NCBI GenBank assembly: GCA_902773675.1
Contig: CACYFN010000002.1
Span: forward strand, 1,453 to 65,452
Source: an uncultured Erysipelotrichaceae bacterium
Lineage (GTDB): Bacteria; Bacillota_I; Bacilli_A; RF39; UBA660
Direction of reading: 5' to 3'
Length of the DNA: 64,000 nt
This document shows positions 1,546 to 62,958 of this stretch, piece by piece. The notes beneath the pieces are model-generated. The model saw only the letters and a list, made by a program, of their open reading frames with translations. It had not been told where the DNA came from and made no database searches. Made by a program: the position numbers and the translations under genes. The stretch's first letter is position 1. The number at the start of each line of letters is the position of its first letter.

Positions 1546-1735
1546 AAAGTATTATAAAATAAGGGACGAAATATCCGTGGTACCACCCTTTTTCATAATA
1601 CTATTATGCACTTAAATTTACTATAAAGCGTAACCTGATTGTTCAAAAGACGAATTCATAAAATACTATCATTCACTTGCACCAACCGTGAACTCTCTTT
1701 GGATAGTTTAGATTACTACTACTTCTTCATCAACA
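1546..1735 (-). promoter_or_regulatory. T-box riboswitch leader, Phe specifier UUC, with terminator/antiterminator
   Basis: The minus strand reads AGAGAG, then AGUGA, then AAUUCG with a UUC specifier. It also carries AAGGGUGGUACCACGG, which matches the T-box consensus AGGGUGGUACCGCGG. A stem and U-run follow just before the pheS SD. Confidence 0.6.
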
Positions 1736-1781
1736 CAATTAAACAAGTTTATAATATCATAATTTTTTATTTTAAACAATA

Positions 1782-6305: not shown

Positions 6306-6449
6306 TATATCACCTAAAATAATTATACATTTATTAAATATTTTAGTCAATGAAAAAGAAGGATAATTCCTTCTTACAGACTGTTGACAAATAAGTAAGT
6401 TAATATACCTATTTGTCAACAGTCTGAAAAAACAATGTTAATTGTTTTT

Positions 6450-10992: not shown

Positions 10993-10995
10993 AAT

Positions 10996-12972
<1,977 letters not shown>

Positions 12973-16062: not shown

Positions 16063-16496
16063 TGAGTCATCCCTTTCTTTATCTTTTTTATTAATTCTTT
16101 TATGAGTGTGGTTTTTCCTGTTTTAAATCTAATTTTTAAGATATTATTATTTATAAGTAATTCTTTTTCTAATTTGCAATCTACTAATAATTCATAGTAC
16201 GTATCTAATTTGTTTATTTTTATTATTTTATAATCATACTTATTATCTTCTATGTATAGTTTATAATTTTTTTTAATTGGAAATAAAGATTTATCAATTA
16301 TTATTTTTAGATTATAATCTTCTTTTATTTCGACGTATCCAATGGTATTTGTATATTTATTTATTTTAAATAGTATGCTTATTAAAATAAATACAAGAGA
16401 TAAAATACATAGTATGGTAATCCAAGAGATTATTTTTGATGGTTTTTCATTTATTAGTTTCATTTTGGAATAGTTAAAGGCATTAAGATTTTCCAT
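16059..16496 (-). CDS. single-TM accessory protein of the bacteriocin exporter
   Basis: 145 aa counted from MENLNAF, which has the SD AGGAGTG. One TM segment is followed by an extracellular beta-rich region. It is coupled both to the exporter stop and to peptide 2. Confidence 0.45.
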   Translation of the reverse strand: MENLNAFNYSKMKLINEKPSKIISWITILCILSLVFILISILFKINKYTNTIGYVEIKEDYNLKIIIDKSLFPIKKNYKLYIEDNKYDYKIIKINKLDTYYELLVDCKLEKELLINNNILKIRFKTGKTTLIKELIKKIKKGMTQ

Positions 16497-18567: not shown

Positions 18568-18580
18568 TTATCTCACCCCC

Positions 18581-18624
18581 TCATGTATATTATTCGACAA
18601 AACTTTTCGATTTCCTTTTTTTTT
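18581..18624 (-). promoter_or_regulatory. copy 1 of a conserved promoter/leader module, located upstream of the bacteriocin exporter
   Basis: Plus-strand sequence tcatgtatattattcgacaaaacttttcgatttccttttttttt. Read on the minus strand it runs straight into the exporter SD and its TTG start. Confidence 0.45.
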
Positions 18625-18677
18625 CTTAAAAAAATTGAAAAAAAATGAAATTTCTTTATTGAATGCAAAAAAAAAGA

Positions 18678-20911: not shown

Positions 20912-20988
20912 GTCTCAGTAGCTCAGCTGGATAGAGCATCGCCCTTCTAAGGCGAGTGTCAGGGGTTCGAATCCCTTCTGGGACACCA
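20912..20988 (+). tRNA. tRNA-Arg, anticodon TCT
   Basis: Cloverleaf with acceptor stem GTCTCAG/CTGGGAC, anticodon loop CTTCTAA and encoded CCA. Confidence 0.85.
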
Positions 20989-42808: not shown

Positions 42809-43852
42809 TTATATTTTGTGTAAAGATTTATTTATGGAACTACTTATTAAATATGATAGTTTTTTGATTACGAAATCTATTTCTTTAGGTGTTACCATTA
42901 AATTGTATCCAATTGGAGTTAATACTTCATAGATTAATTCTTTTATTTCTTCATCATTTAGGGTACCTATTAATCCTAATAAATTGGTTTTATCTGTTTT
43001 TGTAATTTTTATATTTTTATTTAAATAATCAATGTTATTAAATGTTAGTTTGCTTTGTGGTTTTTTACTATATTCTTTATTGAATACATAGTGTTTATAC
43101 ATATAATTTATTGTATCTGATACTATTACTGATGCATCTACAACGGTTGGAATACCTATTGCAAGTACTGGTATTCCAATGGTGTCTTTACTTATTTCTT
43201 TTCTTTTGTTACCTATTCCACTTCCAGGATGAATACCTGTATCGGTCATTTGAATGGTTTTATTTACTCTTTCTATTGATTGACTGGCTAAAGAGTCAAT
43301 GGTAATTATAAAGTCTGGTTTTACTTTGTTTACTATGCTTAATATTATGTCACTTGTTTCTATTCCTGTTTGGCCTGTTACTCCTGGTGTGAATGATGAT
43401 ACTCTTCTAAAGTTATCATCTAAACTATTTAACATATATAAGTGATTAGTTACTATTATATCTTTTATTACTAGTGGGCCTAATGAGTCTGGTGTGGATA
43501 ACTGATTACCTAAACCTATTATTAGACAACTATCTTTTTCTTTAATGTGCATAATCTTTAAGATATTTTTTATTTCTTTTATTAATACTTCTTCTACTTG
43601 ATTTTTATTATCGGTATCTGTTATATCTCTAAATTCTATTGTTATATAATTACCTTCTTTTTTTTCTAATGTATTAAATTTATCTAGTTTTACATTAGTT
43701 ACTTTTATATTATTTATTTCATAATATGATTTACTTACTCCTAATGGATTACTTTTATTTTCTAATTCTTCAATGGCTAAATCAGTTCTAATTTGATAGT
43801 TTTTTAAATCTATTTCATGTTTCAATTTTATCACCATTAATATTTTTACCAA
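42809..43852 (-). CDS. gpr: germination protease
   Basis: The N-terminus ...YQIRTDLAIEE... is GPR-like. It is divergent from rpsT, as in Bacillus. Confidence 0.7.
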   Translation of the reverse strand: MVKILMVIKLKHEIDLKNYQIRTDLAIEELENKSNPLGVSKSYYEINNIKVTNVKLDKFNTLEKKEGNYITIEFRDITDTDNKNQVEEVLIKEIKNILKIMHIKEKDSCLIIGLGNQLSTPDSLGPLVIKDIIVTNHLYMLNSLDDNFRRVSSFTPGVTGQTGIETSDIILSIVNKVKPDFIITIDSLASQSIERVNKTIQMTDTGIHPGSGIGNKRKEISKDTIGIPVLAIGIPTVVDASVIVSDTINYMYKHYVFNKEYSKKPQSKLTFNNIDYLNKNIKITKTDKTNLLGLIGTLNDEEIKELIYEVLTPIGYNLMVTPKEIDFVIKKLSYLISSSINKSLHKI

Positions 43853-44245: not shown

Positions 44246-45151
44246 TTGAAATATATAAGATATTTTATTTTATTAGGTTTAATTGTTACTACTATATATT
44301 TTAGAAATGATATAGCTAATTATATTTTAAGAAAAACTAATCCTACTAAAAAAAGTTTAGTACTTGTTAATAATAGTTATTATAGTAATAATGAAATTAA
44401 ATATGTTAGTATTACTGATGATTTTGATGTTGATAGTAAGCAAGATATTTTAAATGTTTTCTATACTATTTTAAATAGTGGTATGACATCTTTTGAATTT
44501 ACTTGTAATAGTGGTTATAAAGATTGTTTAGCAGACGTTGAAGATATAATTAGAGATAATATTACTTTAGCTAGTATTAATAATATGGTACATCCTTATA
44601 ATTCTTATGAAAATATTTCTGTTAATATCAGTAATTATGGTAAAGTTGATGTTGATATTGAAAAAGTATATAATGATGAGCAAATAGAATATGTTAATAA
44701 CTTTATAATTGATTTTATTAATAATAATGTTACTGATGATATGAGTGATACTGATAAGATTAAGATTTTTCATGATTATATAATTAAGACTACTGATTTT
44801 GATGTTGAGGAATCACATAGTAGCACTAGAGATGGTTCTGTGTCACATACTGCTTATGGGCTTATTCTTAATCATAAGGCTATATGTGGAGGATATAGTG
44901 ATACTATGTCAATATATTTGTATTTATTAAATATTCCTAATTATCGTATATCTACTAATGATCACGTATGGAATTTAGTATTTGTTGATAATGAATGGAA
45001 ACATTTAGATCTAACTTGGGATGATCCTGTTACTAGTGATGGATCTAGACAGTTATTATATCAATATTTTTTAATCGATGAAAAAACATTACATGAATTA
45101 GATAGTTCTCAACACAATTATAATGAAGACGTTTACTTAGAAGCACAATAA
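44246..45151 (+). CDS. transglutaminase-like domain membrane-anchored protein
   Basis: Cys-His-Asp core: AICGGYSD...HVWNLV...HLDLTWDD. Confidence 0.55.
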   Translation: MKYIRYFILLGLIVTTIYFRNDIANYILRKTNPTKKSLVLVNNSYYSNNEIKYVSITDDFDVDSKQDILNVFYTILNSGMTSFEFTCNSGYKDCLADVEDIIRDNITLASINNMVHPYNSYENISVNISNYGKVDVDIEKVYNDEQIEYVNNFIIDFINNNVTDDMSDTDKIKIFHDYIIKTTDFDVEESHSSTRDGSVSHTAYGLILNHKAICGGYSDTMSIYLYLLNIPNYRISTNDHVWNLVFVDNEWKHLDLTWDDPVTSDGSRQLLYQYFLIDEKTLHELDSSQHNYNEDVYLEAQ

Positions 45152-45158
45152 AAGACTC

Positions 45159-46421
45159 TTATGAGTCTTTTTTGTTTCTTTTTGAATAATAAAAGGTATA
45201 TCCTATTATTAATCCACCTAATATAATAATTATTATACTTACTATTATTATTGTCCAAGATAGATAGTTTAATGTATTTGCTACTGTAACATTTTCTTCT
45301 TTAGTATCTGTTTTATCTGCATCTTCATTATTAATTATTTCTTCTTCATTATCAATTATTTCATCACTATTTTCTTTACCAGGAAATAATGAATAACTAT
45401 TATCTACAGTTCCATCACCATAATATATATTTACATTAGATTTTAAATATACTACTGGTCGAATAATAAATGTATTTGTTACTTTTCCATTATTAAAGAA
45501 TCCTGTTCCATCAATAGCTACAGCATGATTTGCATGTCTTGCAAATGGAGAAATTAGCCATGTATTATGTGTTTCAGAACCAGTTTCTGCTATTATACTA
45601 TTATAAATCCAACTTGTTGTTACATCTTCATTTTCAATTCTACATCCATTTGGATTATTATAACAAGATTCGTTAACTCCTTTTCCATATACCAAATATC
45701 CATCACTAGGATACATTAATCCAACATTTCCAGTAGATGATGTTGAAAAATTATTTGAATGATAATTAGTTGTACCACGTTCCCAATTATATAAATCTTC
45801 AGCATTTTGATTAGCTAAATTATCGTTTGCACTTCCTCCTAGATAGAATACTACATTATCTATCATATTTCTAGCTGATTCTTTTAATCCATAGTTTATA
45901 GCATCTCCTGTTTGATTATAATAATCTCCATTTAAGAATGTATTTAAACTTGAATTTTCCCAATCATTTTTACTATTACTATCTTCACTATTATTCCAAG
46001 CCATTTTACTTTCTAAGCCATTGTCTTTAACTATTTTTATTCTTTCTTCAATATTTCCAGTTCCATCATCAATACTGAATATACCTAGTATTCTCCAAGT
46101 TTCACAGTTAGTTCCATCGCTATCACAATTAAATTTAATGTAATTATTTGGATTACTACCTATATATCTATAGTCAGTTTGAGCAGGTGTTTGGATTGTT
46201 GCGTCATGATTAAATGTGTACATTTCTCCTTTATTACCTGTTTCATATGTTGTTATACTTTCATCATTCATTTTTGATTTTATTAATTCTATGGCATTTT
46301 GTGCTTCATTGCCATTATTATATAATTTATTTTTTAGACTGATTCTTGTTGGTGCTTCTTTTGATATTAATGTTATTACTAAAATTAAAATGGAACATAT
46401 TATTAATACTTTTTTCTTCAT
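45159..46421 (-). CDS. surface protein with an N-terminal signal/anchor and a C-terminal TM anchor
   Basis: Ends in a ...FIIRPVVYLKSNV module that is shared with the proteins at 52343 and 54263. Confidence 0.5.
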   Translation of the reverse strand: MKKKVLIICSILILVITLISKEAPTRISLKNKLYNNGNEAQNAIELIKSKMNDESITTYETGNKGEMYTFNHDATIQTPAQTDYRYIGSNPNNYIKFNCDSDGTNCETWRILGIFSIDDGTGNIEERIKIVKDNGLESKMAWNNSEDSNSKNDWENSSLNTFLNGDYYNQTGDAINYGLKESARNMIDNVVFYLGGSANDNLANQNAEDLYNWERGTTNYHSNNFSTSSTGNVGLMYPSDGYLVYGKGVNESCYNNPNGCRIENEDVTTSWIYNSIIAETGSETHNTWLISPFARHANHAVAIDGTGFFNNGKVTNTFIIRPVVYLKSNVNIYYGDGTVDNSYSLFPGKENSDEIIDNEEEIINNEDADKTDTKEENVTVANTLNYLSWTIIIVSIIIIILGGLIIGYTFYYSKRNKKDS

Positions 46422-50315: not shown

Positions 50316-50800
50316 GAATTAACCTCCTTATTACAACTAATAACATTATATCACAGATTAACACTTTTTAGCATATTTTTTATTGTTATTAATAATAATT
50401 ACAATTATAAATTCATAATGGTTTTAGTGTATAATTCTATTACTTTTTTTATTGAATCAGTTAGAATATTTTCTTTTTTACATTATGTATCATATATATT
50501 AGATAATTACTTTGATATCTTCTAAAATATAAACTATATCATCACTTTTTATTAACACATCTAATGTTCTAATTCTTAAAAATACTCTATCAGCTACTAA
50601 TTCTCTATTTCTAACATTTAAATTATTAATATTATAATTTAAATTTAGAGACTTGAATGTTCTATTTATTAACCATTTAAGTAATTTGTCATCTTTAAAG
50701 AAGATACTTTAAAATACTATATTATTAGCTAATGTTTTAATCTTATTATCTTTCATTTATTTCACCCTCATTCTAAGAAAGTAGCTTGTCCTACACTACC

Positions 50801-50848
50801 CTCTATATATATTATTCGACAAAACTTTTTAATTTCCTTTTTTTTTCG
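50801..50848 (-). promoter_or_regulatory. copy 2 (orphan) of the conserved promoter/leader module
   Basis: ctctatatatattattcgacaaaactttttaatttcctttttttttcg. On the minus strand it is followed by the SD GAGGGTG and a 15-codon mini-ORF at 50709-50756. Confidence 0.4.
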
Positions 50849-50937
50849 TTAAAAAATATAAAAATTTACAAAAAGGACAAATTATTTGTTGTAAATAATA
50901 TTTATTTTAATTGAATTTTATATTATAATATTAATAG

Positions 50938-52305
50938 GTGGTAGAAATGAGTAATAAAAGAAAAAAAATGATAATGATTGTAATAATACTTTCGGTATTT
51001 TGTTTTATGTATATTTTAAATAGTAAAACAATGATAGTATCAGATGATTTTCCATATCATTTTGTTTTTTCCAGAGAGCCTAATGCAAATACTAAGTTTA
51101 TTACTAATCCAATTGAAATATTTGGATCTATGGGTACACATTGGATTACTTGGGGTGGACGAGTTTCGGTACATTTTTTACTGCAATTGTCTTTTATGTT
51201 AGGTATTAATTTTTTTAATATTGTTAATTCTATTATGTTTGTACTTTTAGGTATACTTATTTATAAACATATAAATAACACAAAGGAAATTAAATTATCA
51301 TGGTTAGTTACTATTTATGCGGTTATATTTTTATTTGTTCCACAACCAGCTTCTACTATTATGTGGAAAAGTGGTAGTGCGAATTATTTATGGTCTTCTG
51401 TTTTAATTTTATGTATGACTTTAATATTTAAAAAACATTTTGATAATAAGAAATGTATTAAAGATAATTATTTAAATATGTTTTTATTATTTCCTTTTGG
51501 ATTAATAATTGGATGTTCTAATGAAAATACTGGTTGTGCATTAATTTTAGCTGAAATATTATTTATTATTGCTTATAAGGTTAATTATAAAAAGATTCCT
51601 AAGTGGGCAATTAGTGCATTAATTGGTACTATTTTTGGATATATTTTCTTGGTATCTTCTCCTGGTAATTATAAGAGAACTGATATAATGTATCCTAATG
51701 TTCAATATGGAATATCTAATATATTTGATTATATTTTAAAAATTACAAGACTTACTTATAGTTATTTAAAGGAAATTATTATTAGTGTTATTGTTACGAG
51801 TATTATTATTTATAAGGAGAAATATGATTTAAAAAAAGCTATTAGTAATCATACTATTCAGATAATATTTTTAATTCTTGCTTTAGCTAGTATATATTCA
51901 TTAATTATTTCTCCTGCTTACCCTGAGAGATGTTGGATGTTTTCATTTGTTTACTTTACTATTGTAATTGGTATTAATATTAGTAAGATGAAATTTAAAT
52001 CCGATACTATTAGTAGAATTATGATGACTTTAATGATAATATTATCTATTAAGGCTATAAGTGAATATTCAAGTGCATATTATTTTATAAGTGAGACTTA
52101 TGATGAAGTAAATGCTCAAATAGTTGAAATTAATAGACAAAAAGATAAAGGTATTAAAGATATTAAGATACATAGTATTTCGCAACCTGAAGGTAAATAT
52201 AATGCATTTAAGGATAATGGATATATAAATTCAGATCCAGAAAATTGGATTAATGTTTGGGCTGCAGAGTATTATGGTGTTGATACGATTGAAGCTATTG
52301 ATTAA
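50938..52305 (+). CDS. polytopic membrane protein, possibly a GT-C-type glycosyltransferase
   Basis: About 12 predicted TM helices with an early extracytoplasmic SDDFPYHF (D-D/E-like) loop. Confidence 0.4.
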   Translation: MVEMSNKRKKMIMIVIILSVFCFMYILNSKTMIVSDDFPYHFVFSREPNANTKFITNPIEIFGSMGTHWITWGGRVSVHFLLQLSFMLGINFFNIVNSIMFVLLGILIYKHINNTKEIKLSWLVTIYAVIFLFVPQPASTIMWKSGSANYLWSSVLILCMTLIFKKHFDNKKCIKDNYLNMFLLFPFGLIIGCSNENTGCALILAEILFIIAYKVNYKKIPKWAISALIGTIFGYIFLVSSPGNYKRTDIMYPNVQYGISNIFDYILKITRLTYSYLKEIIISVIVTSIIIYKEKYDLKKAISNHTIQIIFLILALASIYSLIISPAYPERCWMFSFVYFTIVIGINISKMKFKSDTISRIMMTLMIILSIKAISEYSSAYYFISETYDEVNAQIVEINRQKDKGIKDIKIHSISQPEGKYNAFKDNGYINSDPENWINVWAAEYYGVDTIEAID

Positions 52306-52342: not shown

Positions 52343-54241
52343 TTATTTCTTCTTCATTTTCTTAAATATTATTGCAGATAATATTACTTGAGCAAATATA
52401 AATAAATTTATTAATATTAATCCTATTAAAATATATTTAATTAATCCATCATCTAATCCATCTTCTCCATAGTCATTATAATAATTATTGATATTTCCAT
52501 TATTATCTATACTATTATTTTCTTTTTCTTCTTCAATTTCGTCTTTTGTTGTTTCTGGATTATTTGATTGCTCATTTGTAAGAGTCTTTTGTTTTTCATT
52601 GGATTCTTTTATTATATTATTGGTTGATTCTTCATCTAATTTTTCTACATTATCTAATTTTAATGTAATTACTGGTCTTATGCCAGCTGTAAATGATAAT
52701 TCTCCTACTCCATTATATCCTGATAGGAAAAAATTATTTCCATTATTTTGACCTGGTGCGATATAAAGAGATACCCAGTTCTTTTCTATTTCAGCATTAT
52801 CGAGATTATAGAACATTATTCCTACATTGAAATATCCATTACCATTATATGGTGATGATGTATCTTCTACAGATTTTTTATTAAATTGCCTTTTGGAATT
52901 AATCCAATATTTAGCATTTACTTTATCATTTATTTTATTTAGATTAGCTAAATCAGAATATACAACTGCTCTAGCATTTATTACTTTATCTCCATTTTTA
53001 TAATTATCTACTTCTTTTTGAAGAATATCTTCATAATTTTCATAATCATCTTTTCCTCTAAGGTAAAGATTTTTTACTATTCCACCACTAATTATATCTA
53101 CTGTATTATTTGCTTTATCTATTGATAATACACGCCAATTTTTATATTCTTGTGCACTATAATTTACATAGTCTCCTACACTTAAATCAGTATTTGCTTC
53201 TTTTTTGTTAGTTTCTTGTGGTGTTAGTTTAAGGGTAACTACTGGCCTAAATCCTTTTGTTACTGGTTGGTATTGACTATATGTTTCAGAATAGCAACAC
53301 TCTAAATAGTTTCTTTCTACTACATACTTTTCAATTTCATAGTATCTTGATTTATATCCTTCTCCAGAACTATCTCCAAACCATCCTCTTAATATTTTAT
53401 ATGGGTTACTTTTGGATGCATAATAATTTTTTATTTTAGTAATATAATTTATTCTATCATTTCCATATCTTTGAAGAACATGTCCAGTTTCCCAAACATT
53501 ACTGTCTGACTGACGATAATCATTAAAAATTGCATCAATATATCCATATGGATCATTTAACATTTGCTCATTACCTAATACATCTATTGCAATTGGGTCT
53601 TTAGGCATTAACCATAAAGAATCTCCCCATACTTCTATTATAAACCATTCACTAATACCACCAATATCTTTGGTATATATATCTCCTTGTTCATAACCAG
53701 ATGTGTTATCTAAATGATATTGTATATATGGTAAAAAATATAGATCATTTGAAAAATCAGATGGATCTACATATTCAATTTTTCCTGCTGAATATGCAAT
53801 ACTCTTATCATATTTGTCTGCTGTCCAAAATTCTTTACCAAATGCAAAATTCTCCAAATCAGAACGATTTACGCTTCTTGCTTTAATAGCATATTTCCCA
53901 TCAACATATTTATCTGCTTCAGTTTGAAATATATCTAATGCATTATCAAAATCATCTTTATCTGATATAGTTATTTCGGATACATTATCTTTACTTACAA
54001 CGTCTATTGTTCCATTTACTTTATCTATATAGATAACTTTCCAATCTGAATATCCATTTATTTCATATTTTATTGAATCACCAATTTTAATTTTTTTTAT
54101 ATTTGTATTTAAATCATTTATGTTGTAGACACTACCCATTAATCTATTAGGATTTACTGATATTCCAACTAATACAATTATTAATATAACCATAAAAATA
54201 CTTGTAATTAGTACTTTTATTGCATTACTTTTTTTATTCAT
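52343..54241 (-). CDS. large two-anchor surface protein with two tandem ~200-aa repeats
   Basis: Each repeat runs from ...GDSIKYEINGYSDWKVIYIDKVNGTIDVVSK... to ...GFRPVVTLKL. It is a paralog of the 54263 and 45159 proteins. Confidence 0.5.
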   Translation of the reverse strand: MNKKSNAIKVLITSIFMVILIIVLVGISVNPNRLMGSVYNINDLNTNIKKIKIGDSIKYEINGYSDWKVIYIDKVNGTIDVVSKDNVSEITISDKDDFDNALDIFQTEADKYVDGKYAIKARSVNRSDLENFAFGKEFWTADKYDKSIAYSAGKIEYVDPSDFSNDLYFLPYIQYHLDNTSGYEQGDIYTKDIGGISEWFIIEVWGDSLWLMPKDPIAIDVLGNEQMLNDPYGYIDAIFNDYRQSDSNVWETGHVLQRYGNDRINYITKIKNYYASKSNPYKILRGWFGDSSGEGYKSRYYEIEKYVVERNYLECCYSETYSQYQPVTKGFRPVVTLKLTPQETNKKEANTDLSVGDYVNYSAQEYKNWRVLSIDKANNTVDIISGGIVKNLYLRGKDDYENYEDILQKEVDNYKNGDKVINARAVVYSDLANLNKINDKVNAKYWINSKRQFNKKSVEDTSSPYNGNGYFNVGIMFYNLDNAEIEKNWVSLYIAPGQNNGNNFFLSGYNGVGELSFTAGIRPVITLKLDNVEKLDEESTNNIIKESNEKQKTLTNEQSNNPETTKDEIEEEKENNSIDNNGNINNYYNDYGEDGLDDGLIKYILIGLILINLFIFAQVILSAIIFKKMKKK

Positions 54242-54262
54242 TCTTAAACCTCCTTCTAATAA

Positions 54263-56263
54263 TTACTTTTTCTTTTTATTTTTTATATTTTTAATAATAA
54301 GTACAGAAAATATTGTTTGAATTAGTAACGCTATATTTAATATTACTATAGTAATTATTATATATTTTACTATTTTATTATTATTATTTTTCTTTTTATG
54401 GTTATTATAATAATTATTTACTTCATTATTATCTTTAGTATCTATTTTATTATCTTCTGTATTTTTATCATCTTTAGTTATATCATTTTTTGTATTATTT
54501 TTTTCATTATTCTTTTTAGTATCATCTGTTATATATTTAGTACTATTATTCTTTTGTTCTTTTGTAATATTATTATTATTTTTATTTGATGATTCAATAG
54601 CATTTTGTGTTTCTTCTTCATTTAATTTTTTAACATTATCTAGTTTTAATGATATTACTGGTCTAATTCCAGCTGTAAATGATAAATCTCCAAATCCATT
54701 GTAACCTGTTAACATAGAACTTGATCCACTTGTTAGGCTTGTTGAAACATATAATGAAACCCATTTTCTTTCTACTGAATTTGTGTCATAGTCAAAATAT
54801 AAAATTGCGGCATCATAGAATCCATTAGTAGCATAAGGAGATGATGTTTCATCTACTGCTTTTTTGTTATATTGTTTTTTTTCTAATGACCAATATTTTA
54901 CATTTACATCATCATTAATTTTATTTAATTTTTTAATATCACTATATTCAGTTATTCTGGCACTTATAGCATTATCACCATTTTTATATTCATCTACTTC
55001 TTTTTGTAAAATATCTTCATAGTTTTCAAAATCATCTAATCCATAAAGGCTTATATTTTTAACTATTCCACCACTAATTATATCGACTGTTTCATTTTCT
55101 TCATCTATTGATAATACTTTCCAGTTATAATATTCTTTAGCACTATAGTTTACATTATCTCCAACTTGTAAATCTGTTCCAATACTTTTACCATCTGCAA
55201 TTTTTGAACTATATTTTAGAGTAACAATTGGTCTAAAGCCTTTGGTAATTGGTTTTTCTGTTATATATGATTCATTTTCACAACATTCATCACTATTTTG
55301 GTCAAGGTGAATTGTTGCAACAGATCCTGTTATTTCGTCATAAGTATAATTTTGATGTAATTCAAAGTATCCTGTAAAAGTTTTTAGATCATTTCCTTCT
55401 TGAATAAAGTAATTATTTATATTTTGATTGTCTCTTATAACCCAGAATCCATATTTATCTTGAAGGTTACCTACTTCTACTACTTTATTATTGGAATTTT
55501 GTAATCTTTCTAGATATTCTGCAATATATTTTGTTGGATTATTTCTAAATTGTTCATTTTTTTCAAATGACAATTTAATTGGTTCTTTTGATATTAGTGC
55601 TAATTTATCATATGAAGGAGCATTGATAACAAACCAATCTGTAACTCCATCAATATCTATTGTATAGTCTGATCCATAAGCATACGAATAGGCATTTTCT
55701 ATATCATTTATGATGACATATGGGATGTAATAGTATTCATGGGGTTTATTTTCAAATTCTGTATATTTAACTGCTCCGGTTGTAAATGCTACTGCTCCAT
55801 CATAAATATCAGCATTCCAGAATTCTTCATCAAATGCAAAGTTATCTAAATCAGCTCTTGATACACTACGTGCTTTTATTGCATATTTTTCATCTACATA
55901 TTTATTGGCTGTTTCTTGAAATTTATTTAGGGCATTGTCATAATCATCTTTAGTTAGTAAGGTTATATCTTCAACATTGGTTTTACTAACAACATCAATT
56001 GTATTACTATTTCTATCAATGTATACTACTTGCCAATCAGAATATCCATTTATTTCATAATTAATAGTATCTCCTACTTTTAATATATTATTATTACTTT
56101 CTAATTCTGTTGCTTTATAAGTACTACCTAAAAGTTTATCTGGTTTAAGCTTTGTTCCTAGCAATATAACAAATACAAAGATTAAACTTAATCCTATTAT
56201 TAAAACATATTTTTTAGGTGTTTTTATATTATTAGATTTTTTAACATTTTTTTTATTATTCAT
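54263..56263 (-). CDS. large two-anchor surface protein, paralog of the 52343 protein
   Basis: Same repeat architecture: ...GDTINYEINGYSDWQVVYIDRNSNTIDVVSK... ending in GFRPIVTLKY and AGIRPVISLKLD. Confidence 0.5.
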   Translation of the reverse strand: MNNKKNVKKSNNIKTPKKYVLIIGLSLIFVFVILLGTKLKPDKLLGSTYKATELESNNNILKVGDTINYEINGYSDWQVVYIDRNSNTIDVVSKTNVEDITLLTKDDYDNALNKFQETANKYVDEKYAIKARSVSRADLDNFAFDEEFWNADIYDGAVAFTTGAVKYTEFENKPHEYYYIPYVIINDIENAYSYAYGSDYTIDIDGVTDWFVINAPSYDKLALISKEPIKLSFEKNEQFRNNPTKYIAEYLERLQNSNNKVVEVGNLQDKYGFWVIRDNQNINNYFIQEGNDLKTFTGYFELHQNYTYDEITGSVATIHLDQNSDECCENESYITEKPITKGFRPIVTLKYSSKIADGKSIGTDLQVGDNVNYSAKEYYNWKVLSIDEENETVDIISGGIVKNISLYGLDDFENYEDILQKEVDEYKNGDNAISARITEYSDIKKLNKINDDVNVKYWSLEKKQYNKKAVDETSSPYATNGFYDAAILYFDYDTNSVERKWVSLYVSTSLTSGSSSMLTGYNGFGDLSFTAGIRPVISLKLDNVKKLNEEETQNAIESSNKNNNNITKEQKNNSTKYITDDTKKNNEKNNTKNDITKDDKNTEDNKIDTKDNNEVNNYYNNHKKKNNNNKIVKYIIITIVILNIALLIQTIFSVLIIKNIKNKKKK

Positions 56264-56416
56264 TTCATCCCACTCCTATTTTAATAATTTTATATTTTAT
56301 TATAACATTATAATGAGTATTTATCAATGATTAATATTCTTTTGTTTTTATTTTTCGTTTATTTAAATAGATTTTTTATTCACTTATTAATAATATAATT
56401 CCCCAAAAAAAGAAGA

Positions 56417-57649
56417 TTATTTATCTTCTAGTTTTTTTTTCATGATGATTGCTATTGCTACTAAAACAACAACGCATCCACCAAGAATAGCAAATATTTT
56501 TACAATATCATCTAGTGTTTTTGGTGCTTCTGCTTCTTTTTTTTCTTCTTTTACTTCTTCTAATGTTTCTTCTTTTGCTTCTTCAATAGTTTTTTCTTTT
56601 AAACTTGCTCTTGCTGCTTTTAACTTTGTAACCATTTCATCTACATTTTCTTGAGTAGCATTAGTATTATTTTTTAATTCATTAGCTTCATCTAATAAAT
56701 CTTCAACATTTTTAAATGATTCATCAGTATATTTATCTTTTTCTAATGCATTAATTTCTTCTAATTGTTTTAATAATTCAGTTTTATCTGCTTGATTTTT
56801 TAAATTATTTTTTGCTGTATTAATACTATCTATTCCGTTTTTTATATCATCTATTGTGATTGTTGTACCTTCCAAAACTGTTTTTTGTGCTTCTATTACT
56901 TCTTTCAAACTATCTATTGAATCTTTTGTATAATTATTCGCATAATCCTCATATTTTCCTTCTTCTTCAGTAATTAAATTTGATAATAATGCAGTATTTA
57001 CTTCTAACGCATCAACAATGTCATCAGCTTCTCCAAATGTATAATCTACTTGAATATAGAATTTACCTGGAGTTGTTGTATCTTCATTAAGAGTAATTTC
57101 TGATGAAATAGCTGTTTCAATATTTTCAATTAATTCATCTAAATTGCTAAAAGAAGTTGATGTGTAATATTCTTTATTATTTTGATACTCTTTTAAAGTA
57201 CTTAGACGTGTTTGTAATTCAGTCTTGTCATAAAGATACCAATTTCCTATTCTCTTTGATCCACTATATCCTGTTATTTTGTATGCATAGTTTTTTTCAA
57301 TATATCCTAAATTAATTGTTTTATTAGAGTCTCCTCCATTTTCATTATGAAAAATTATCATATTATAATGATATTCATCAAAACTATCTGGGGCTGTAAA
57401 CATGTATATATTGTCTTCGCCAGGAACCTTAACTAATTCATCATTACTATCCCAGGCTTTATATGTTGCTCCATTTTTTTCCCAAATATGAATATAGATA
57501 TGATTCCAGTCTAATCCAGTTGCATCAAAATAGATAACATCTCCTTTTTTTATTGCTGAATGTTCTTTATCTGGCGTATATGTAGCTTTTACATTTGATA
57601 TACAAAGCATTGTAAGTATTATTGCTATAAACGCAAATATTTTTTTCAT
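56417..57649 (-). CDS. surface protein with an N-terminal beta-domain, a coiled-coil region and a C-terminal sorting-like anchor
   Basis: Signal peptide. The C-terminus reads EAPKTLDD, a hydrophobic helix, then KKKLEDK. Confidence 0.5.
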   Translation of the reverse strand: MKKIFAFIAIILTMLCISNVKATYTPDKEHSAIKKGDVIYFDATGLDWNHIYIHIWEKNGATYKAWDSNDELVKVPGEDNIYMFTAPDSFDEYHYNMIIFHNENGGDSNKTINLGYIEKNYAYKITGYSGSKRIGNWYLYDKTELQTRLSTLKEYQNNKEYYTSTSFSNLDELIENIETAISSEITLNEDTTTPGKFYIQVDYTFGEADDIVDALEVNTALLSNLITEEEGKYEDYANNYTKDSIDSLKEVIEAQKTVLEGTTITIDDIKNGIDSINTAKNNLKNQADKTELLKQLEEINALEKDKYTDESFKNVEDLLDEANELKNNTNATQENVDEMVTKLKAARASLKEKTIEEAKEETLEEVKEEKKEAEAPKTLDDIVKIFAILGGCVVVLVAIAIIMKKKLEDK

Positions 57650-57762
57650 TTTCTTCCTCCTATTATTATATGTAAATTATATAATAAATATTTTCTTTTG
57701 TCAATATTAGCATGAAATAAATTTCTTTTTTATATACTAAAAAATAGTACTAATTGCACTAT

Positions 57763-58287
57763 TTAATATTCTTCATCATTTATTATCTTTGCTTCTATAA
57801 TTATTTGTATATCATCTTTAATTTTATGGCATGTTATAAGTGTAATAGTATTATTATGATTTTCTATTTTAAAGGAATTCTTTTTTAATTCTTTTATGTT
57901 ATATATTTGATATGTATACTTGACATTATCTTTATATAAATAAATAATATCTTCATTCTTTAATTCATCTAATCTGTTAAAATAACATATACTGCAGTTA
58001 CCGGAATGACTTGCTAAAATTATATCATTATTTAGAAATCTTTGATAATCTATGATAGTAATATCTTCATCTACATTAGAATCTTTTTTTAACCCTCTTT
58101 TTAAATTTATTTTAGGTATTTCTAATATTGCTACAAAATCATTATTATCTTTATGTTCTAAATAGTTAGCTATAGAATTAATTTCTTGTTTTTGAATTTT
58201 ATAATTTTGATAATAATTATTACACTTTAAAGTTATGCCAATTATGATAAATAAACTACTTATTAAAATTATACTTTTTAGTTTCAT
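57763..58287 (-). CDS. small sortase-family transpeptidase
   Basis: ILASHSG (His) and TLITC (TLxTC Cys). No canonical Arg is obvious after the Cys. Confidence 0.55.
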   Translation of the reverse strand: MKLKSIILISSLFIIIGITLKCNNYYQNYKIQKQEINSIANYLEHKDNNDFVAILEIPKINLKRGLKKDSNVDEDITIIDYQRFLNNDIILASHSGNCSICYFNRLDELKNEDIIYLYKDNVKYTYQIYNIKELKKNSFKIENHNNTITLITCHKIKDDIQIIIEAKIINDEEY

Positions 58288-60031
58288 ATATACCTATAAA
58301 ACCTATTATAATAAAAATATTAGATAGTATTTTATTATAATTAATTTCATTTTTTAATGTATTTGGTATTTCATATTGTTCATTTATTACTTCAATATTA
58401 TTAAAATCATTATCTATATTTATATCAATATTATCTGTATTTAATAAATATCCATTAACTCCTTCTACTTCTTCTAAATAATATTCTCCATAATAAAGAT
58501 CAGATATATAGCCATAACCATTATTAATTGTTATTTCATCTATTAATTCATCAGCTTTATAATAGATATCTCCTGTAAGTGATACTATATCTTTTTTAGC
58601 AAATAATTTAAATTTTGCTCCATTTAATAGTAAATTATCACTACCTATTTTTTTGATTTCTAAATTACCTTTTTTTATTATTTCTTTATCTTTTAACTCA
58701 ATTATAGTTTCTTCTTTAATGTTTGAGGCATCTATTTCTATTGGACTACTTATTTCAAAGTTATCTTTTCCACTTATTTGTTTTAGAATATATTTACCAA
58801 ATGGTAAAAGTAATTCTATGGTACCTGATTCATCTGTTATATATGTATCTATTAAATTATTATATTCATCATAAAGTTCAAATGAGGCATCACTTTCTAA
58901 ATAGTAATTATCAGTTATTTCATTACCATATTTTTTTATGATTTTATATTTATTTTTGATTATATCTTCATATACTATTAGTTTTTGATGATTATTAGTT
59001 GAGGTTAGATTTACTTCATATTTGGTATCATCTAACATATATCCTTTACTGGGTTGTATTTCTTTTATGTAATAATTTCTTAATGGTAAATCAGAAATTA
59101 CTCCATATCCATTATTATCAAGTGATATTTCTTGAATTAATTTATTATCTTCATCATATAATCCATATACCGCTCCTTCTAGGGTAGCTGGCGCTTGACT
59201 AGTAATATTTTCTCTATCTTGTTTATTAATTTCTATTGTTCCATCTTTAAATGTTATAGTTATTGACTTTGTTACATCATCATACTTACCTGGATAAAAC
59301 ATGTTTTGTCTTACATTGTTATTATATAATATATAATCTCTAGTTTCAGAAGATTTTTTTATAAAACGAATTGTATATGTACCTGGATTATCACTGGATA
59401 TTGTTAATGTATTACCAACTTTATTTATGTTAATATTACCATTATAATCAATATCATATAAGTCAAGTACATTGTTATTATCTACTAATGTATATTGTTC
59501 TTTAATACTATAATTGTTTTCTATGTTAAAATTTGGAGTAATGTAATGATTATTTACAAGACTATTTAATTCATTTAATTCTTCTTTATATTGAATAATT
59601 TTATTTCCATATAATGTATCGGTATAATAGATATCATCTAGTCCTAAAGTTTCCCAAATAAGATATTGAGTTATTCCATACCATTTTATATCGGTATGAT
59701 TATTATAACCATATCCATAATGAGCAAGTAAATTCATTCTATTTATTTGTTCTTTTGATAAACCGAATAATTCATTATATCCAATATATCCTTCATAATT
59801 TCCATTTATTTCATTAGTAAATGGATCTATGCAATATACATAATTATTATCACTTCTTAGTAGCATCCATGTTGATGTATTTCTTAAATTACCATTTTTT
59901 ATTTTTGTTACATAGGCATTTGGTACCATACTACCAAAGTGAAATGATTCTATTAAATCATAAGCTGATACTTTAGATATACTTATAATAAGTATAAAAA
60001 TAATAAATAAAATTTTTTTCATTTTTTTCAT
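58256..60031 (-). CDS. thioester-domain (TQXA) adhesin with CnaB/SpaA-type isopeptide domains
   Basis: YVYCIDPF followed by GITQYLIWE, with Cys...TQxxIW spacing typical of a thioester domain. It has three CnaB-like repeats, and its C-terminus reads IPNTL, a hydrophobic helix, then KKYNFNK. Confidence 0.6.
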   Translation of the reverse strand: MKKMKKILFIIFILIISISKVSAYDLIESFHFGSMVPNAYVTKIKNGNLRNTSTWMLLRSDNNYVYCIDPFTNEINGNYEGYIGYNELFGLSKEQINRMNLLAHYGYGYNNHTDIKWYGITQYLIWETLGLDDIYYTDTLYGNKIIQYKEELNELNSLVNNHYITPNFNIENNYSIKEQYTLVDNNNVLDLYDIDYNGNININKVGNTLTISSDNPGTYTIRFIKKSSETRDYILYNNNVRQNMFYPGKYDDVTKSITITFKDGTIEINKQDRENITSQAPATLEGAVYGLYDEDNKLIQEISLDNNGYGVISDLPLRNYYIKEIQPSKGYMLDDTKYEVNLTSTNNHQKLIVYEDIIKNKYKIIKKYGNEITDNYYLESDASFELYDEYNNLIDTYITDESGTIELLLPFGKYILKQISGKDNFEISSPIEIDASNIKEETIIELKDKEIIKKGNLEIKKIGSDNLLLNGAKFKLFAKKDIVSLTGDIYYKADELIDEITINNGYGYISDLYYGEYYLEEVEGVNGYLLNTDNIDINIDNDFNNIEVINEQYEIPNTLKNEINYNKILSNIFIIIGFIGIYETKKYNFNK

Positions 60032-60045
60032 TTTTTTCCTCCTTA

Positions 60046-61074
60046 TTAACTTGGTATTTGGATAAAAGATAAATAATCATTTTTCATCCATATGTTGTAT
60101 TCTGTATTAATCCAATTATTATAGTCATACCAAATTCCGTCATAAAAATACCTAGATAGTTGATGGGTATTTTTATTTATTTTATATGTTAAATCTTGTT
60201 GATTTGGTATTCTAATATCATTGGTAATAATTTTATTACTGATAAGTTTAAACATATTATATTTTTGAGTATCTATTATATATTCATAACCATAACCACT
60301 TATTTTTTTATTTATATAAATTGGGTTATTCCAATTTAGGTCAGTAGAATCGGAATTATTAATTCTTTTCCATAGGTAAATAGATGGATTTTGATCTATA
60401 AATATATAGATTCTTTTTTTATTAAATTGAGAAAATACTAGAGGTGCGAATACTTTTCCTAAATTATTAGTTGAGAATGATAAATCAATGGTTTGTTTTT
60501 TAGCACTAATCTCTGAATTATTGGTATCGGTAAAGATAATATTTTTATATTTATTTATATTTTCTGGTTCTATATTATAAGCATATATTTTTTTTTGATA
60601 ATCTATTAGGGTTGCAGGTTTACCCGGCCATGGTGCATTATATATTTTTTCTTGATCATTATATAAATAAACATTTACATTAGTTGAATTCCAATCAGGA
60701 GGTATTTGAAAATAGATATAATTATTTTTCCATTTAGCAAATAGTTCTATAGTATCATTATCAACAGAAGTTAGATTTATGATAGATTCTCCATCTTGAT
60801 AATTTTTTCCTGTTCCATTTTGTTCGGTATTCCATCCATCAAAAGTATATCCTTCTTTTGTAAAAGTATTTAAATTTAGATTATAACTTGTATCATATAT
60901 TAAATTCATATCTGGCATTGATCCGATACCAGAGTTTGAATTAAATTTTACTATATAATTTGGTTTACGATTATTAATAGTTATTGTACTTTTAAAAGAA
61001 GTATGATATTTACTATAAGATACTGGAATTATCATTGATAATACTATTAATAAAATAATTAATACTTTTTTCAT
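60046..61074 (-). CDS. secreted Listeria-Bacteroides repeat protein
   Basis: The signal peptide ends VSYSKYHTSF. GYTFDGWNTEQNGTGKNYQDGESI is a List_Bact repeat. Confidence 0.5.
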   Translation of the reverse strand: MKKVLIILLIVLSMIIPVSYSKYHTSFKSTITINNRKPNYIVKFNSNSGIGSMPDMNLIYDTSYNLNLNTFTKEGYTFDGWNTEQNGTGKNYQDGESIINLTSVDNDTIELFAKWKNNYIYFQIPPDWNSTNVNVYLYNDQEKIYNAPWPGKPATLIDYQKKIYAYNIEPENINKYKNIIFTDTNNSEISAKKQTIDLSFSTNNLGKVFAPLVFSQFNKKRIYIFIDQNPSIYLWKRINNSDSTDLNWNNPIYINKKISGYGYEYIIDTQKYNMFKLISNKIITNDIRIPNQQDLTYKINKNTHQLSRYFYDGIWYDYNNWINTEYNIWMKNDYLSFIQIPS

Positions 61075-61085
61075 GAGTCACCTCT

Positions 61086-61547
61086 TTATAAGTTTACTTG
61101 ATTAAATATTACTTCTATTTGAATAGGATGGTTTAAAAGATTTGGGGTTGCTAATGTGGATTTAAAATGGAGAGTATCTTGAATATTTAGTATTTCTTTT
61201 GATGAATTTATGGTTCTGACATCAATAATTATTTGATTATTATTGGAACTTATATATGAATTATTATTGAGTGATACTTCTATTTCATCTGGAACATTAG
61301 TGAGTTTTATTATATAATTGGAAGCTACTTCAGATTTATAGGAAATATTAATTATATAATCCTCGATATTACTACCTGATACTAAATCTAGTGTTTCATT
61401 TGGTAGACTTGCTTCTATATTCCATTTAGCTATAGCAATACTTTTATTAATTAATAAATTATTATTGTATTTTGAGTATGTGTTTACTATTATATTAAAT
61501 GAAAATATAACAAAATAAATTAATAAGAAATGGATATATTTTTTCAT
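61086..61547 (-). CDS. secreted protein with a TasA-like N-terminal motif
   Basis: ...NTYSKYNNNLLINKSIAIAKWNIE..., paralogous to the N-terminus of the protein at 62199. Confidence 0.5.
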   Translation of the reverse strand: MKKYIHFLLIYFVIFSFNIIVNTYSKYNNNLLINKSIAIAKWNIEASLPNETLDLVSGSNIEDYIINISYKSEVASNYIIKLTNVPDEIEVSLNNNSYISSNNNQIIIDVRTINSSKEILNIQDTLHFKSTLATPNLLNHPIQIEVIFNQVNL

Positions 61548-62122
61548 AGATTATCATTCTCTTCTATACTAAAAGATAGTTTTACTATATATTTATTAAT
61601 ATTACTTTTTCCAATATAATTATCTAATTTATCATTATCAAACCATTTCCAATCTAGAGAATAATTATCTATGTTTCCTTTTGATAAATTTAGATAGGTA
61701 GTTTTTAATTCTTCGGATGTTACCCATAATTTATCATTTCCAAGTATATATTCATCATTTCTTTTTAATCGATATTTTATATTAACACTGTAATTGGATA
61801 GTTTAGTTAATTCTATTAAATATTTAATAGTTATGTTATTGTTATTTTTTACTTTAAAATAATATGTATTAGATACTCCTGGGGCAATAGTTTTTGTGTT
61901 ATTAAATAAATTTATTTCTGTTTGATATTGATAATCTCCATTATAATCTTCAATAATGATATTACCATTATCTAATTTACAATTATCTTTTTTACTATTA
62001 AATTTAATATTATAAATATCTGCATTTTTCTTTAATATTTTTGTTTTAGTACATTTTACAAAAAGAAGAAGAATTATTATTAATACTAATATTATATTTA
62101 TTATTTTCCACTTATTATTCAT
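61544..62122 (-). CDS. hypothetical membrane-anchored protein
   Basis: N-terminal TM segment with an N/K-rich beta-rich ectodomain. It is coupled to the downstream gene. Confidence 0.45.
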   Translation of the reverse strand: MNNKWKIINIILVLIIILLLFVKCTKTKILKKNADIYNIKFNSKKDNCKLDNGNIIIEDYNGDYQYQTEINLFNNTKTIAPGVSNTYYFKVKNNNNITIKYLIELTKLSNYSVNIKYRLKRNDEYILGNDKLWVTSEELKTTYLNLSKGNIDNYSLDWKWFDNDKLDNYIGKSNINKYIVKLSFSIEENDNL

Positions 62123-62198
62123 TTAATACCTCCTATTTAGTTTCCATAGACAAAATAATTATTACTTTGCCTATGGAAGTTAAATAACTTCCAATTTA

Positions 62199-62825
62199 TT
62201 AGTTTATGTGAATAGTTATTGGATTAGTTCCTGGTCTTACTTGTGTTCCTGTAATAGTTACTGGTATTTCTAGTATTTCTCCTAAAACACCATATTCATT
62301 ATCAAGTGCATCTCCGCTATATATTCCATTTGTTATGGATCCTGTTTCAAATATCCACTTCCAATATATGGTTACTGTTAATCCTTCTTCGTCATTAGCA
62401 GATAATTGTCCATTTATTTTAGTGATTCCTGGTATTATTTCTGTTTGATAGTTTGAATCTTTATAAAATTTAATATTTGTAGGAAAATGTTCAACACTAT
62501 CTAATGAAATGCTGAAATTAGCACCAACATCACTAGTATTTACTAAGTCTATGGAAAATGATCCTTCTGTACCTGGGGCAATTATTTTATAATCTTTTCC
62601 ATCAACTGTTCTTGAACTTATAAGTGTTGATTCATCATAATTATCTTTTAGGTTAATATTAATTGTTTCAGAATTATTATCAGTTTCAAAATTCCATCTA
62701 GCTATAGCTACGGAACTTCTTTTGGAAATAGAGGCTGTGTATTTAGCATATGTACCTGCAATAAAAACACCAGATATACCAATTACTAATAGTAATAATA
62801 ATACTTTAATTTTTTTCTTTTTCAT
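62199..62825 (-). CDS. secreted protein with a TasA-like N-terminal motif, first gene of the island operon
   Basis: ...AGTYAKYTASISKRSSVAIARWNFE... with the SD AAAGGAAGTG. The promoter module lies 60 nt upstream. Confidence 0.5.
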   Translation of the reverse strand: MKKKKIKVLLLLLVIGISGVFIAGTYAKYTASISKRSSVAIARWNFETDNNSETININLKDNYDESTLISSRTVDGKDYKIIAPGTEGSFSIDLVNTSDVGANFSISLDSVEHFPTNIKFYKDSNYQTEIIPGITKINGQLSANDEEGLTVTIYWKWIFETGSITNGIYSGDALDNEYGVLGEILEIPVTITGTQVRPGTNPITIHIN

Positions 62826-62891
62826 ATTTCACTTCCTTTCTTTTTTTCTATAGCTTGTCCATTATTTATTTACAACATATTTATCACCTCC

Positions 62892-62937
62892 TCATGTATA
62901 TTATTCGACAAAACTTTCTAATTTCCTTTTTTTTTTG
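62892..62937 (-). promoter_or_regulatory. copy 3 of the conserved promoter/leader module, located upstream of the surface island operon
   Basis: ctcatgtatattattcgacaaaactttctaatttcctttttttttt. On the minus strand it is followed by the SD GAGGAGGTGA and the mini-ORF ATG TTG TAA. Confidence 0.45.
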
Positions 62938-62958
62938 GAAAAAAAATGAAGAAAAGTG

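Follow-up and report, generated by a model that had tools for sequence, protein, structure and literature searches.

The surface-protein island considered here lies in a 64-kb stretch of DNA from an uncultured Erysipelotrichaceae bacterium (contig CACYFN010000002.1), and this whole stretch is called the window. The island consists of nine open reading frames (ORFs), named g1 to g9, all on the minus strand between positions 52343 and 62940 (Table 1); related loci are numbered L001 onward. An earlier reading of the sequence (the original prediction) had described nine co-directional genes here, and the ORFs were found at those positions and with those lengths. Contigs L015-L018, from at least four independent metagenome assemblies, shared the nine-gene order with the window at 99.4-99.8% identity, which indicates that the arrangement is real and not an assembly artefact. 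The G+C content of the window was about 24%, and the related contigs that name their source were human-gut metagenome assemblies. A gene for the germination protease GPR was present at 42809-43852 on the minus strand, so that the organism is an endospore former. The island is probably a composite of three units: unit A (g1-g4), a set of small secreted proteins with a repeat protein, unit B (g5-g6), an adhesin with a sortase, and unit C (g7, and g8-g9 with a DUF6056 gene).

Table 1. Features of the island and its immediate surroundings (positions in the window; the arrow marks predicted cleavage).
Feature	Position	Strand	Description
g1, putative major subunit	62199..62825	-	208 aa; signal peptide, predicted cleavage TYA27↓K28, beta-sandwich domain
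g2, membrane-anchored g1 paralog	61544..62122	-	192 aa; IAPG...WKW...DxxxG; without cleavage motif
g3, minor g1 paralog	61086..61547	-	153 aa; motif TYS↓KY; disordered N-terminal segment, then 7-strand beta-sandwich
g4, putative carbohydrate-binding tip/adaptor	60046..61074	-	342 aa; SYS↓KY, Listeria-Bacteroides repeat, CBM26-like module
g5, TIE-type adhesin	58256..60031	-	591 aa; Sec signal, thioester domain (TED), three SpaA/CnaB-type domains, putative sorting signal
g6, small membrane-anchored sortase	57763..58287	-	174 aa; His94, Cys153 (TLITC), Gln161
g7, separate surface protein	56417..57649	-	410 aa; Sec signal, coiled-coil-like region, C-terminal APKTL and hydrophobic anchor
g8 and g9, tandem paralogs	54263-56263 and 52343-54241	-	666 and 632 aa; N- and C-terminal anchors, internal two-fold repeat
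DUF6056 (GT_STM0557_N) polytopic membrane protein, convergent to g9	50938..52305	+	Pfam 379 bits
Promoter module copy 3	62884..62958	-	AAAGGAAAT-N11-GTCGAATAA, then Shine-Dalgarno site
Stem-loop 3' of g1	62174..62193	-	-8.9 kcal/mol, no U-tract
Terminator-like hairpin directly past g6 stop	57736..57764	-	9-bp stem, -7.8 kcal/mol, z-score -2.95, then U6
Perfect sigma-70 consensus upstream of g7	57676..57704	-	TTGACA-17-TATAAT, 12/12
Sigma-70-like extended -10 site upstream of g8	56299..56327	-	TTGATA-17-TG-TATAAT, 11/12

The family of g1 was large and unannotated. None of 80 homologs from a word-index search carried a Pfam domain, and a profile of the family matched, in a full HMMER scan, 8351 representative clusters (50% identity) at E ≤ 1e-3 and 697 at E ≤ 1e-30. 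In the alignment of 44 homologs, T25, A27, K28 and Y29 (within a GTYAKYT motif), IAPG at 82-85, W155, W157, D175 and Q195 were invariant. N96 was invariant in the family like K28 and D175, and E99 nearly so; intermolecular isopeptide bonding in g1, in the manner of BsaA, was considered, with K28, N96, D175 and E99 as candidate residues. The AlphaFold2 (AF2) model of g1, with a predicted local distance difference test score (pLDDT) of 80.8, comprised a signal helix, an N-terminal strand and a beta-sandwich. The stem-loop after g1 is possibly a partial attenuator or an mRNA stabiliser that would favour the transcript of the major subunit.

The next two genes encode paralogs of g1. The g2 family aligned with the C-terminal half of the g1 family (IAPG...WKW...DxTxG; hhalign probability 96.2%, E 2.2e-9), and g2, which is also the second gene in related loci, has a single N-terminal hydrophobic segment resembling an uncleaved signal anchor. 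The g3 family aligned with the N-terminal half (probability 98.6%, E 8.6e-16), bearing out the earlier suggestion of paralogy between the 153-aa and 208-aa proteins. Structure prediction from g3 aligned with its g1-family matches gave an AF2 model with a pLDDT of 81.3, in which residues 25-37, just past the predicted cleavage site, were disordered (pLDDT <50). The fourth gene encodes a Listeria-Bacteroides-repeat protein, as had been proposed: its Flg_new match (44.5 bits, cut-off 27) exceeded the gathering score, and CBM26 (34.9 bits, cut-off 28.1) and TIGR02543 (25.8 bits, cut-off 20.95) were matched as well.

Common to g1, g3 and g4 was the motif [ST][YF][AS]KY just past the signal helix, which also occurred in the divergent loci L001, L011, L013 and L014 and was kept in the g4 homologs of L001, L007, L011 and L013. 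The motif has small residues at -3 and -1, as a signal-peptidase site would, and the predicted cleavage is placed between A27 and K28 because of the analogy with TasA (GTWA↓AFND). No C-terminal hydrophobic anchor or LPXTG-like motif was present in g1, g3 or g4.

The gene neighbourhoods of relatives tied these proteins to a peptidase of the SipW type. In a metagenome scan, gene order was called in 80 further loci with hidden Markov models (HMMs) built from our own alignments, and dereplication of the g1 sequences at 80% identity, with adequate flanks required, gave 21 lineages. The order sipW-g1-g2-sipW-g3-(g4) recurred across many independent loci, and a SipW-type gene was located within 5 kb of g1 in 16 of the 21 lineages, the other five having none in cis. 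Locus L001, whose g1 is 57% identical, encodes g1, a g2-like protein, a 144-aa S26 peptidase, and g3-like and g4-like proteins, while in L011, L012 and L013 a peptidase gene precedes g1 and a second one separates g2 from g3. In-frame fusions of a SipW-type peptidase to a g3-like domain in L010 (5166-6038) and to a g1-like domain in L004 (11369-12418) support a functional link between SipW and the subunits. The peptidases of L001, L004 and L010-L014 scored 57-115 bits against TIGR02228 (archaeal/endoplasmic reticulum (ER), SipW type; cut-off 51.85), and the Ser of SGSM and the His of THR were retained in most of the cluster-linked peptidases.

In the window itself, tblastn with eight SipW-type queries revealed no S26/SipW peptidase across the 64 kb, in agreement with the earlier statement that the island has no SipW. 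The absence is not a feature of the design: the orthologous clusters carry one or two SipW-type genes at fixed positions, and the lineage of the window has lost both cis copies of sipW. No remnant of sipW is left, because g2 and g3 overlap by four bases, and L007, the closest divergent relative, likewise lacks sipW in cis. Between the window and L007, the ratio of nonsynonymous to synonymous substitution rates (dN/dS) was 0.18-0.42 for g1-g6 at dS of 0.4-0.96. The six genes are therefore under purifying selection despite the loss of sipW, and are not decaying. Given this selection and the five lineages without SipW in cis, processing in trans by a peptidase encoded elsewhere in the genome is the most economical assumption.

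Two further SipW-like genes were seen on related contigs. L019, which lacks g1-g6, encodes a 167-aa SipW-like protein (2289-2792) 3' of its desulfoferrodoxin gene; it scored 45.8 bits against TIGR02228, just under the cut-off, has neither the SGSM serine nor the THR histidine, and may be a degenerate or chaperone-like peptidase homolog, recalling SipA/LepA. At 18018-20275 of L013, a 393-aa protein with a C-terminal SipW-type domain adjoins a DUF5305 protein and a second Flg_new protein, and this looks like another SipW-associated surface cluster on the same contig.

The 208- and 153-aa proteins had been called TasA-like, and as a statement about sequence or family this failed. Peptidase_M73 (PF12389) gave no match to g1, g2 or g3 at E ≤ 1, nor to any of the 44 members of the g1 family at E ≤ 10. 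The model of the SipW-cognate signal, TIGR04088, scored 12 bits on g1 (cut-off 19), with a weak match in only 2 of the 44 members. TasA was absent from the PDB matches of the g1 family profile. Comparison of the g1 family by hhalign with TasA alone gave a probability of 2.8%, and with a 25-sequence TasA alignment a probability of 11% over nine columns (sGTYAKYTS on GGTWAAFND); in both cases the overlap was limited to 9-10 columns at the cleavage site, with which the invariant T25, A27, K28 and Y29 do align. The TasA query for this was 99% identical to the B. subtilis cluster, every listed match carrying PF12389. On these grounds (Pfam and NCBIfam models on g1 and 44 homologs, the PDB profile search and the two hhalign comparisons) membership of g1 in TasA by sequence was rejected.

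The predicted folds were no more specific. Foldseek with the g1 model returned generic beta-sandwich matches and nothing specific, and the best matches of the g1 and g3 models were generic Ig-like or jelly-roll folds, among them CBMs, CUB domains and matrix proteins such as RbmA; the Ig-like matches of the g3 model were RbmA (6.7), the cannula subunit CanX (5.9) and EcpD (5.9). What stands of the TasA analogy is the mechanism, with g1-g4 as a SipW-cognate, TasA-analogous secreted set. In TasA/TapA and BsaA, subunits are linked by a donor strand, which is the segment that SipW sets free (PMC9674648, PMC10151520, PMC11580942), and g1-g4 are therefore read as a TasA-analogous, non-homologous fibre module. 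On balance, unit A seems to be one of many SipW-cognate operons in gut Bacillota that form a large family without annotation.

Unit B follows unit A. In g5, the TED (PF08341) scored 25.8 bits (cut-off 22) and SpaA (PF17802) 113 bits in three stretches, likewise above its gathering score. Cys67 (YCIDP) and Gln122 (TQYLIW) aligned with fCIEP and TQMLIW of SaTIE-TED 6fx6 (E 1.6e-6), and both residues were kept in L007 and L010. A TED (TQXA) adhesin with CnaB repeats had been proposed; the TED, the SpaA domains and the Cys-Gln pair of the 591-aa protein, on which that proposal depended, are present, but the motif is not a strict TQXA, reading TQYL. The C-terminus of g5 reads IPNTL-KNEINYNKILSNIFIIIGFIGIY-ETKKYNFNK, that is, a putative sorting signal, a hydrophobic stretch and a basic tail. 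The signal is IPNTL in the window and L007 and IPNTG in L010, so that the Gly at P1' is missing in g5.

A sortase gene had been placed directly after g5, and g6 indeed matched Sortase (PF04203) with 47.5 bits against a gathering score of 26.6. Among the NCBIfam sortase class models none reached its cut-off, the best being class C with 46 bits versus 160. In alignments to 5dv0, 2ln7 and the sortases of L004 and L041, Gln161 occupies the position of the catalytic Arg; the alignment to 2kw8 stops at residue 162 and has no Arg opposite Gln161 either. The protein thus matches the sortase HMM with an incomplete His-Cys-Arg triad. Gln161 is common to the window, L007 and L010, and the TED-adjoining sortases of L004 and L041 retain Arg. 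Since Gln161 occurs in L010 alongside IPNTG and the sipW fusion, the substitution is older than the loss of sipW. The dN/dS of g6 between the window and L007 was 0.20.

TED and sortase genes were always adjacent, and were near g1 clusters in 4 of the 21 lineages (window/L007, L010, L004 and L041); the other 17 had no sortase within 10 kb. Unit B is therefore an accessory module of two genes, found with the fibre module repeatedly though not of necessity, and not the integral part of the system that the original prediction had made of it. The whole island as a sortase pilus was likewise rejected, since g1, g3 and g4 lack a sorting signal; g5 was the only clear candidate substrate, the APKTL end of g7 being ambiguous. 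The TED proteins of L004 (3525-6104) and L041 (5214-6227) end one residue past LPRTG and LPITG, respectively, without a hydrophobic tail under table 11 translation; an alternative genetic code, a frameshift or an unusual substrate could account for this.

A 75-nt promoter module (repeat family D4) occurs three times in the window, on the minus strand at 18573-18647, 50795-50869 and 62884-62958, the last copy preceding g1. All copies have the invariant core AAAGGAAAT-N11-GTCGAATAATATA (AGGAAAT-N11-GTCGAAT), followed by a strong Shine-Dalgarno site. This core fits RNAGGAWWW-N11-12-RNNGAAT, which we take to be the consensus of the sigma-H family (sigma-H/ComX-like), and AGGAWWW-N11-12-RNNGAAT matched 8 times in the window versus 1.3 expected, all three copies among the matches; we infer that the module depends on sigma-H. 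The gaps from g1 to g6 are 76, -4, 11, 14 and -32 nt, and g1-g6 plausibly form one operon. Nine genes had been placed under the shared module: the three-copy module itself is real, but its reach over all nine was not confirmed, given the terminator-like hairpin past g6 and the sigma-70 sites before g7 and g8.

The surroundings of the three copies differ. Copy 1 is directly upstream of a Peptidase_C39/ABC peptide exporter gene (16483-18567), and its Shine-Dalgarno site serves the true start codon of the exporter. All that copy 2 precedes is an ORF of 14 codons (MKDNKIKTLANNIVF), some 480 nt upstream of ftsK/spoIIIE. In the leader of copy 3 (62870-62878, minus strand), a two-codon mini-ORF (ATG TTG TAA) comes after the strong Shine-Dalgarno site GAGGAGGTGA. 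Together, the three copies hint at a small regulon tying peptide export to the surface island.

The remaining genes have histories of their own. In g7, sub-threshold matches to CBM26 (24 bits) and FIVAR were found, and its C-terminus has APKTL, a hydrophobic stretch and KKK. The window at about 56946-57778 is 100% identical to L007 8745-9560, beginning just past the stop codon of the sortase gene and covering no fewer than 235 codons of g7, and the preceding 5.5 kb, from the desulfoferrodoxin gene through g6, is only 66-88% identical at the DNA level. This jump at about position 57,778 marks either the edge of a segment recently recombined or transferred, or the join in a chimeric metagenome contig; unless the L007 contig is chimeric, g7 has a separate history.

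The tandem proteins g8 and g9 share 46% identity and bear hydrophobic segments at both ends, N-terminal and C-terminal, as expected from their first description as two large two-anchor repeat proteins. None of the 107 homologs of this family carried a Pfam domain. The family occurred in L019 without g1-g6, and it was paired with the convergent DUF6056 gene throughout L015-L019 (in L019 at 4961-6322 and 10397-11755), which suggests that the two are a functional pair, perhaps for glycosylation of the two-anchor proteins. Because of the own promoters, the hairpin past g6, the identity jump against L007 and the occurrence in L019, g7-g9 are neighbours and not parts of the system; their inclusion in one system was not borne out, as they are transcribed as units of their own and differ in evolutionary history.

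Elsewhere in the window, a surface protein of 420 aa with DUF6273 and an anchor at its C-terminus is encoded beside a divergent transglutaminase-like protein at 44246-46421. A link between g8/g9 and DUF6273 (IRPVVYLK versus GIRPVITLK) was dropped, the match covering 46 residues at E 0.097 and ten more members giving no significant Pfam match. A T-box leader (1559-1742, minus strand) and a tRNA gene (20912-20985, plus strand) are also in the window, and no Rfam element, riboswitches included, was found in the island. The possibility of a mobile island was not supported, as the junction between the desulfoferrodoxin gene and g1 is kept in L001, L007 and L010; in L010, insertion sequence (IS) elements are located 3' of the sortase gene.

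These observations can be arranged into a working model. In this model g1, g3 and g4 would be exported via Sec and cut by a SipW-type signal peptidase at (S/T)(Y/F)(A/S)↓KY, and the freed N-terminal strand would enter the beta-sandwich of the next subunit by donor-strand complementation, as in TasA. The fibre would consist mostly of g1, with g3 as a minor subunit and g4 (Flg_new/CBM26) as a glycan-binding tip or adaptor joined through the shared N-terminal strand, while g2, the uncleaved membrane-anchored paralog, would serve as base or assembly platform. With both cis sipW genes lost here, processing would fall to a peptidase from another part of the genome. Unit B would be a self-contained accessory module, in which g5 binds its target covalently and g6 anchors g5 to the wall, and it would be co-transcribed with unit A from the sigma-H-like promoter. 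Unit C would contribute independently transcribed surface or membrane proteins.

Several points weigh against this model. Homology of g1 to TasA is none beyond the cleavage motif, and that g1 polymerises is something we infer. The 64-kb window holds no SipW, hence processing in this organism has to be assumed. With Gln161 in the sortase and Leu in place of Gly in the sorting signal, the activity of g6 may be altered or lost. The sigma-H assignment relies on likeness to a consensus, and pattern-matched promoters and terminators are common at 24% G+C, 94 sigma-70-like sites having been found versus 114 expected.

The same evidence bears on other explanations. If g1-g4 were secreted or surface beta-sandwich proteins that SipW processes but that do not polymerise, such as a complex for glycan binding that g2 keeps at the membrane, the generic folds (CBMs, CUB domains, RbmA) and the CBM26 module of g4 would be accounted for without the polymerisation that the fibre reading attributes to g1. 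However, a SipW-type peptidase together with small paralogs and a strict N-terminal segment is the signature of TasA/TapA and BsaA, and the recurrence of its motif on g4, an otherwise unrelated protein, would be difficult to account for if it were not an assembly handle. We consider the non-polymerising explanation rather unlikely. We give distinctly less weight to the idea, put forward originally, that all nine genes form one integrated and undescribed fibre/adhesin machine, with subunits, TED tip and sortase on a single structure. Its attraction is that the genes are co-directional and adjacent, that g1-g6 are plausibly one operon and that sortase-TED pairs occur near g1 clusters in 4 of 21 lineages, above our own chance expectation; yet a C-terminal sorting signal is absent from g1, g3 and g4, no sortase is encoded within 10 kb in 17 of 21 related lineages, g7 and g8 have consensus promoters of their own behind a terminator-like hairpin, g7 is 100% identical to L007 where the remainder is 66-88% identical, and g8/g9 occur without g1-g6 in L019.

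It seems similarly improbable that the g1 family is an undescribed class of SipW-processed donor-strand fibre of gut Bacillota, without sequence relation to TasA and arranged as sipW, major subunit, membrane base, sipW, minor subunit and lectin tip, onto which the Arg-less sortase of this lineage couples g5 covalently, for example at the invariant N-terminal Lys28, to give a hybrid fibre in which donor-strand and sortase assembly come together. Least probable is a decaying, non-functional remnant. The lack of SipW in the window, IPNTL versus IPNTG in L010, and Gln161 at the Arg position could all be taken as signs of decay (loss of sipW, Gly-to-Leu in the sorting signal, Arg-to-Gln in the sortase). 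Against this, all ORFs have stayed intact, both in at least four samples and in L007, a divergent relative, dN/dS is low for all six genes (0.18-0.42 at dS 0.4-0.96), Gln161 is also present in L010, which still has IPNTG and the sipW fusion, and with 5 of 21 lineages lacking SipW in cis, supply in trans seems common. The fibre model, with unit A as a SipW-cognate operon and unit B as its accessory, therefore remains the one that we prefer. The observation behind the original prediction was largely real, and its interpretation was right on mechanism but wrong on family membership, on the extent of the system and on novelty.

The claim that such an architecture had not been described was overstated, as precedents are found in the C. 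perfringens bsa operon and the streptococcal FCT pili. The closest mechanistic model is tapA-sipW-tasA of B. subtilis, which makes TasA/TapA fibres (Peptidase_M73, TIGR04088, TIGR04087). Like the g1-family relatives, it has an archaeal/ER-type signal peptidase encoded in the operon together with several small secreted paralogs. The motif across the cleavage site is alike (GTYA↓KY in g1, GTWA↓AF in TasA), as is the beta-sandwich subunit with an N-terminal strand, and g4 shares this handle as TapA does. In C. perfringens, sipW-bsaA-bsaB-bsaC adjoins a sortase gene, and most strains have an LPXTG-bearing BsaB-like protein (PMC11580942). The bsa operon with srtB (PMC7395162, PMC11580942) is thus comparable as a SipW-dependent operon for a TasA-like polymer in an anaerobic spore former, with an adjoining sortase and an LPXTG-bearing accessory protein, and BsaA uses donor-strand exchange. 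It differs in that its LPXTG protein is itself BsaB-like, whereas the putative sortase substrate of the island is an unrelated thioester adhesin. BsaA also has remote TasA homology and intermolecular isopeptide bonds, whereas homology of g1 to TasA was not detectable.

In the FCT pili of group A streptococci, a signal-peptidase homolog is combined with a sortase and a tip adhesin of the thioester type (PMC7900414). In FCT-2/3/4 (cpa-sipA/lepA-fctA-srtC-fctB), the signal-peptidase-I homolog, the CnaB-type TED adhesin and the dedicated sortase resemble the present arrangement, most closely that of L010. Their pilins, however, are joined into polymers by sortase, which uses sorting signals and a pilin lysine, and g1, g3 and g4 have no sorting signal; furthermore, SipA/LepA lack catalytic residues, whereas the SipW-type enzymes of the g1-family relatives retain Ser and His. 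With the TIE proteins (SaTIE-TED 6fx6, SfbI and Cpa), g5 shares an N-terminal TED with a Cys-Gln pair, a SpaA/CnaB-type stalk and a wall-sorting region, and differs in its IPNTL signal versus LPXTG, its partner sortase without the conserved Arg and the location of its gene inside a SipW-type operon.

Measured against these systems, the subunit family appears to be new, with no TasA homology detectable and no Pfam or NCBIfam model. The stereotyped six-gene layout is new as well, with its membrane-anchored paralog and a lectin-type protein bearing the same handle. In this lineage, the loss of sipW in cis and the gain of a TED adhesin and an Arg-less sortase are also new. The conserved Arg-to-Gln sortase, together with the IPNTL signal, offers a ready test of the essentiality of the sortase Arg, and the recurrent co-location of TED and sortase genes provides a natural system for how non-covalent and covalent surface assembly combine. 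With Flg_new/CBM26 at its tip, such a fibre would be a candidate for attaching the cell to glycans of the diet or the host. To our knowledge, SipW/donor-strand fibres are so far known only from TasA, CalY and BsaA; if the g1 family polymerises, this way of building fibres would reach well beyond Bacillus and C. perfringens.

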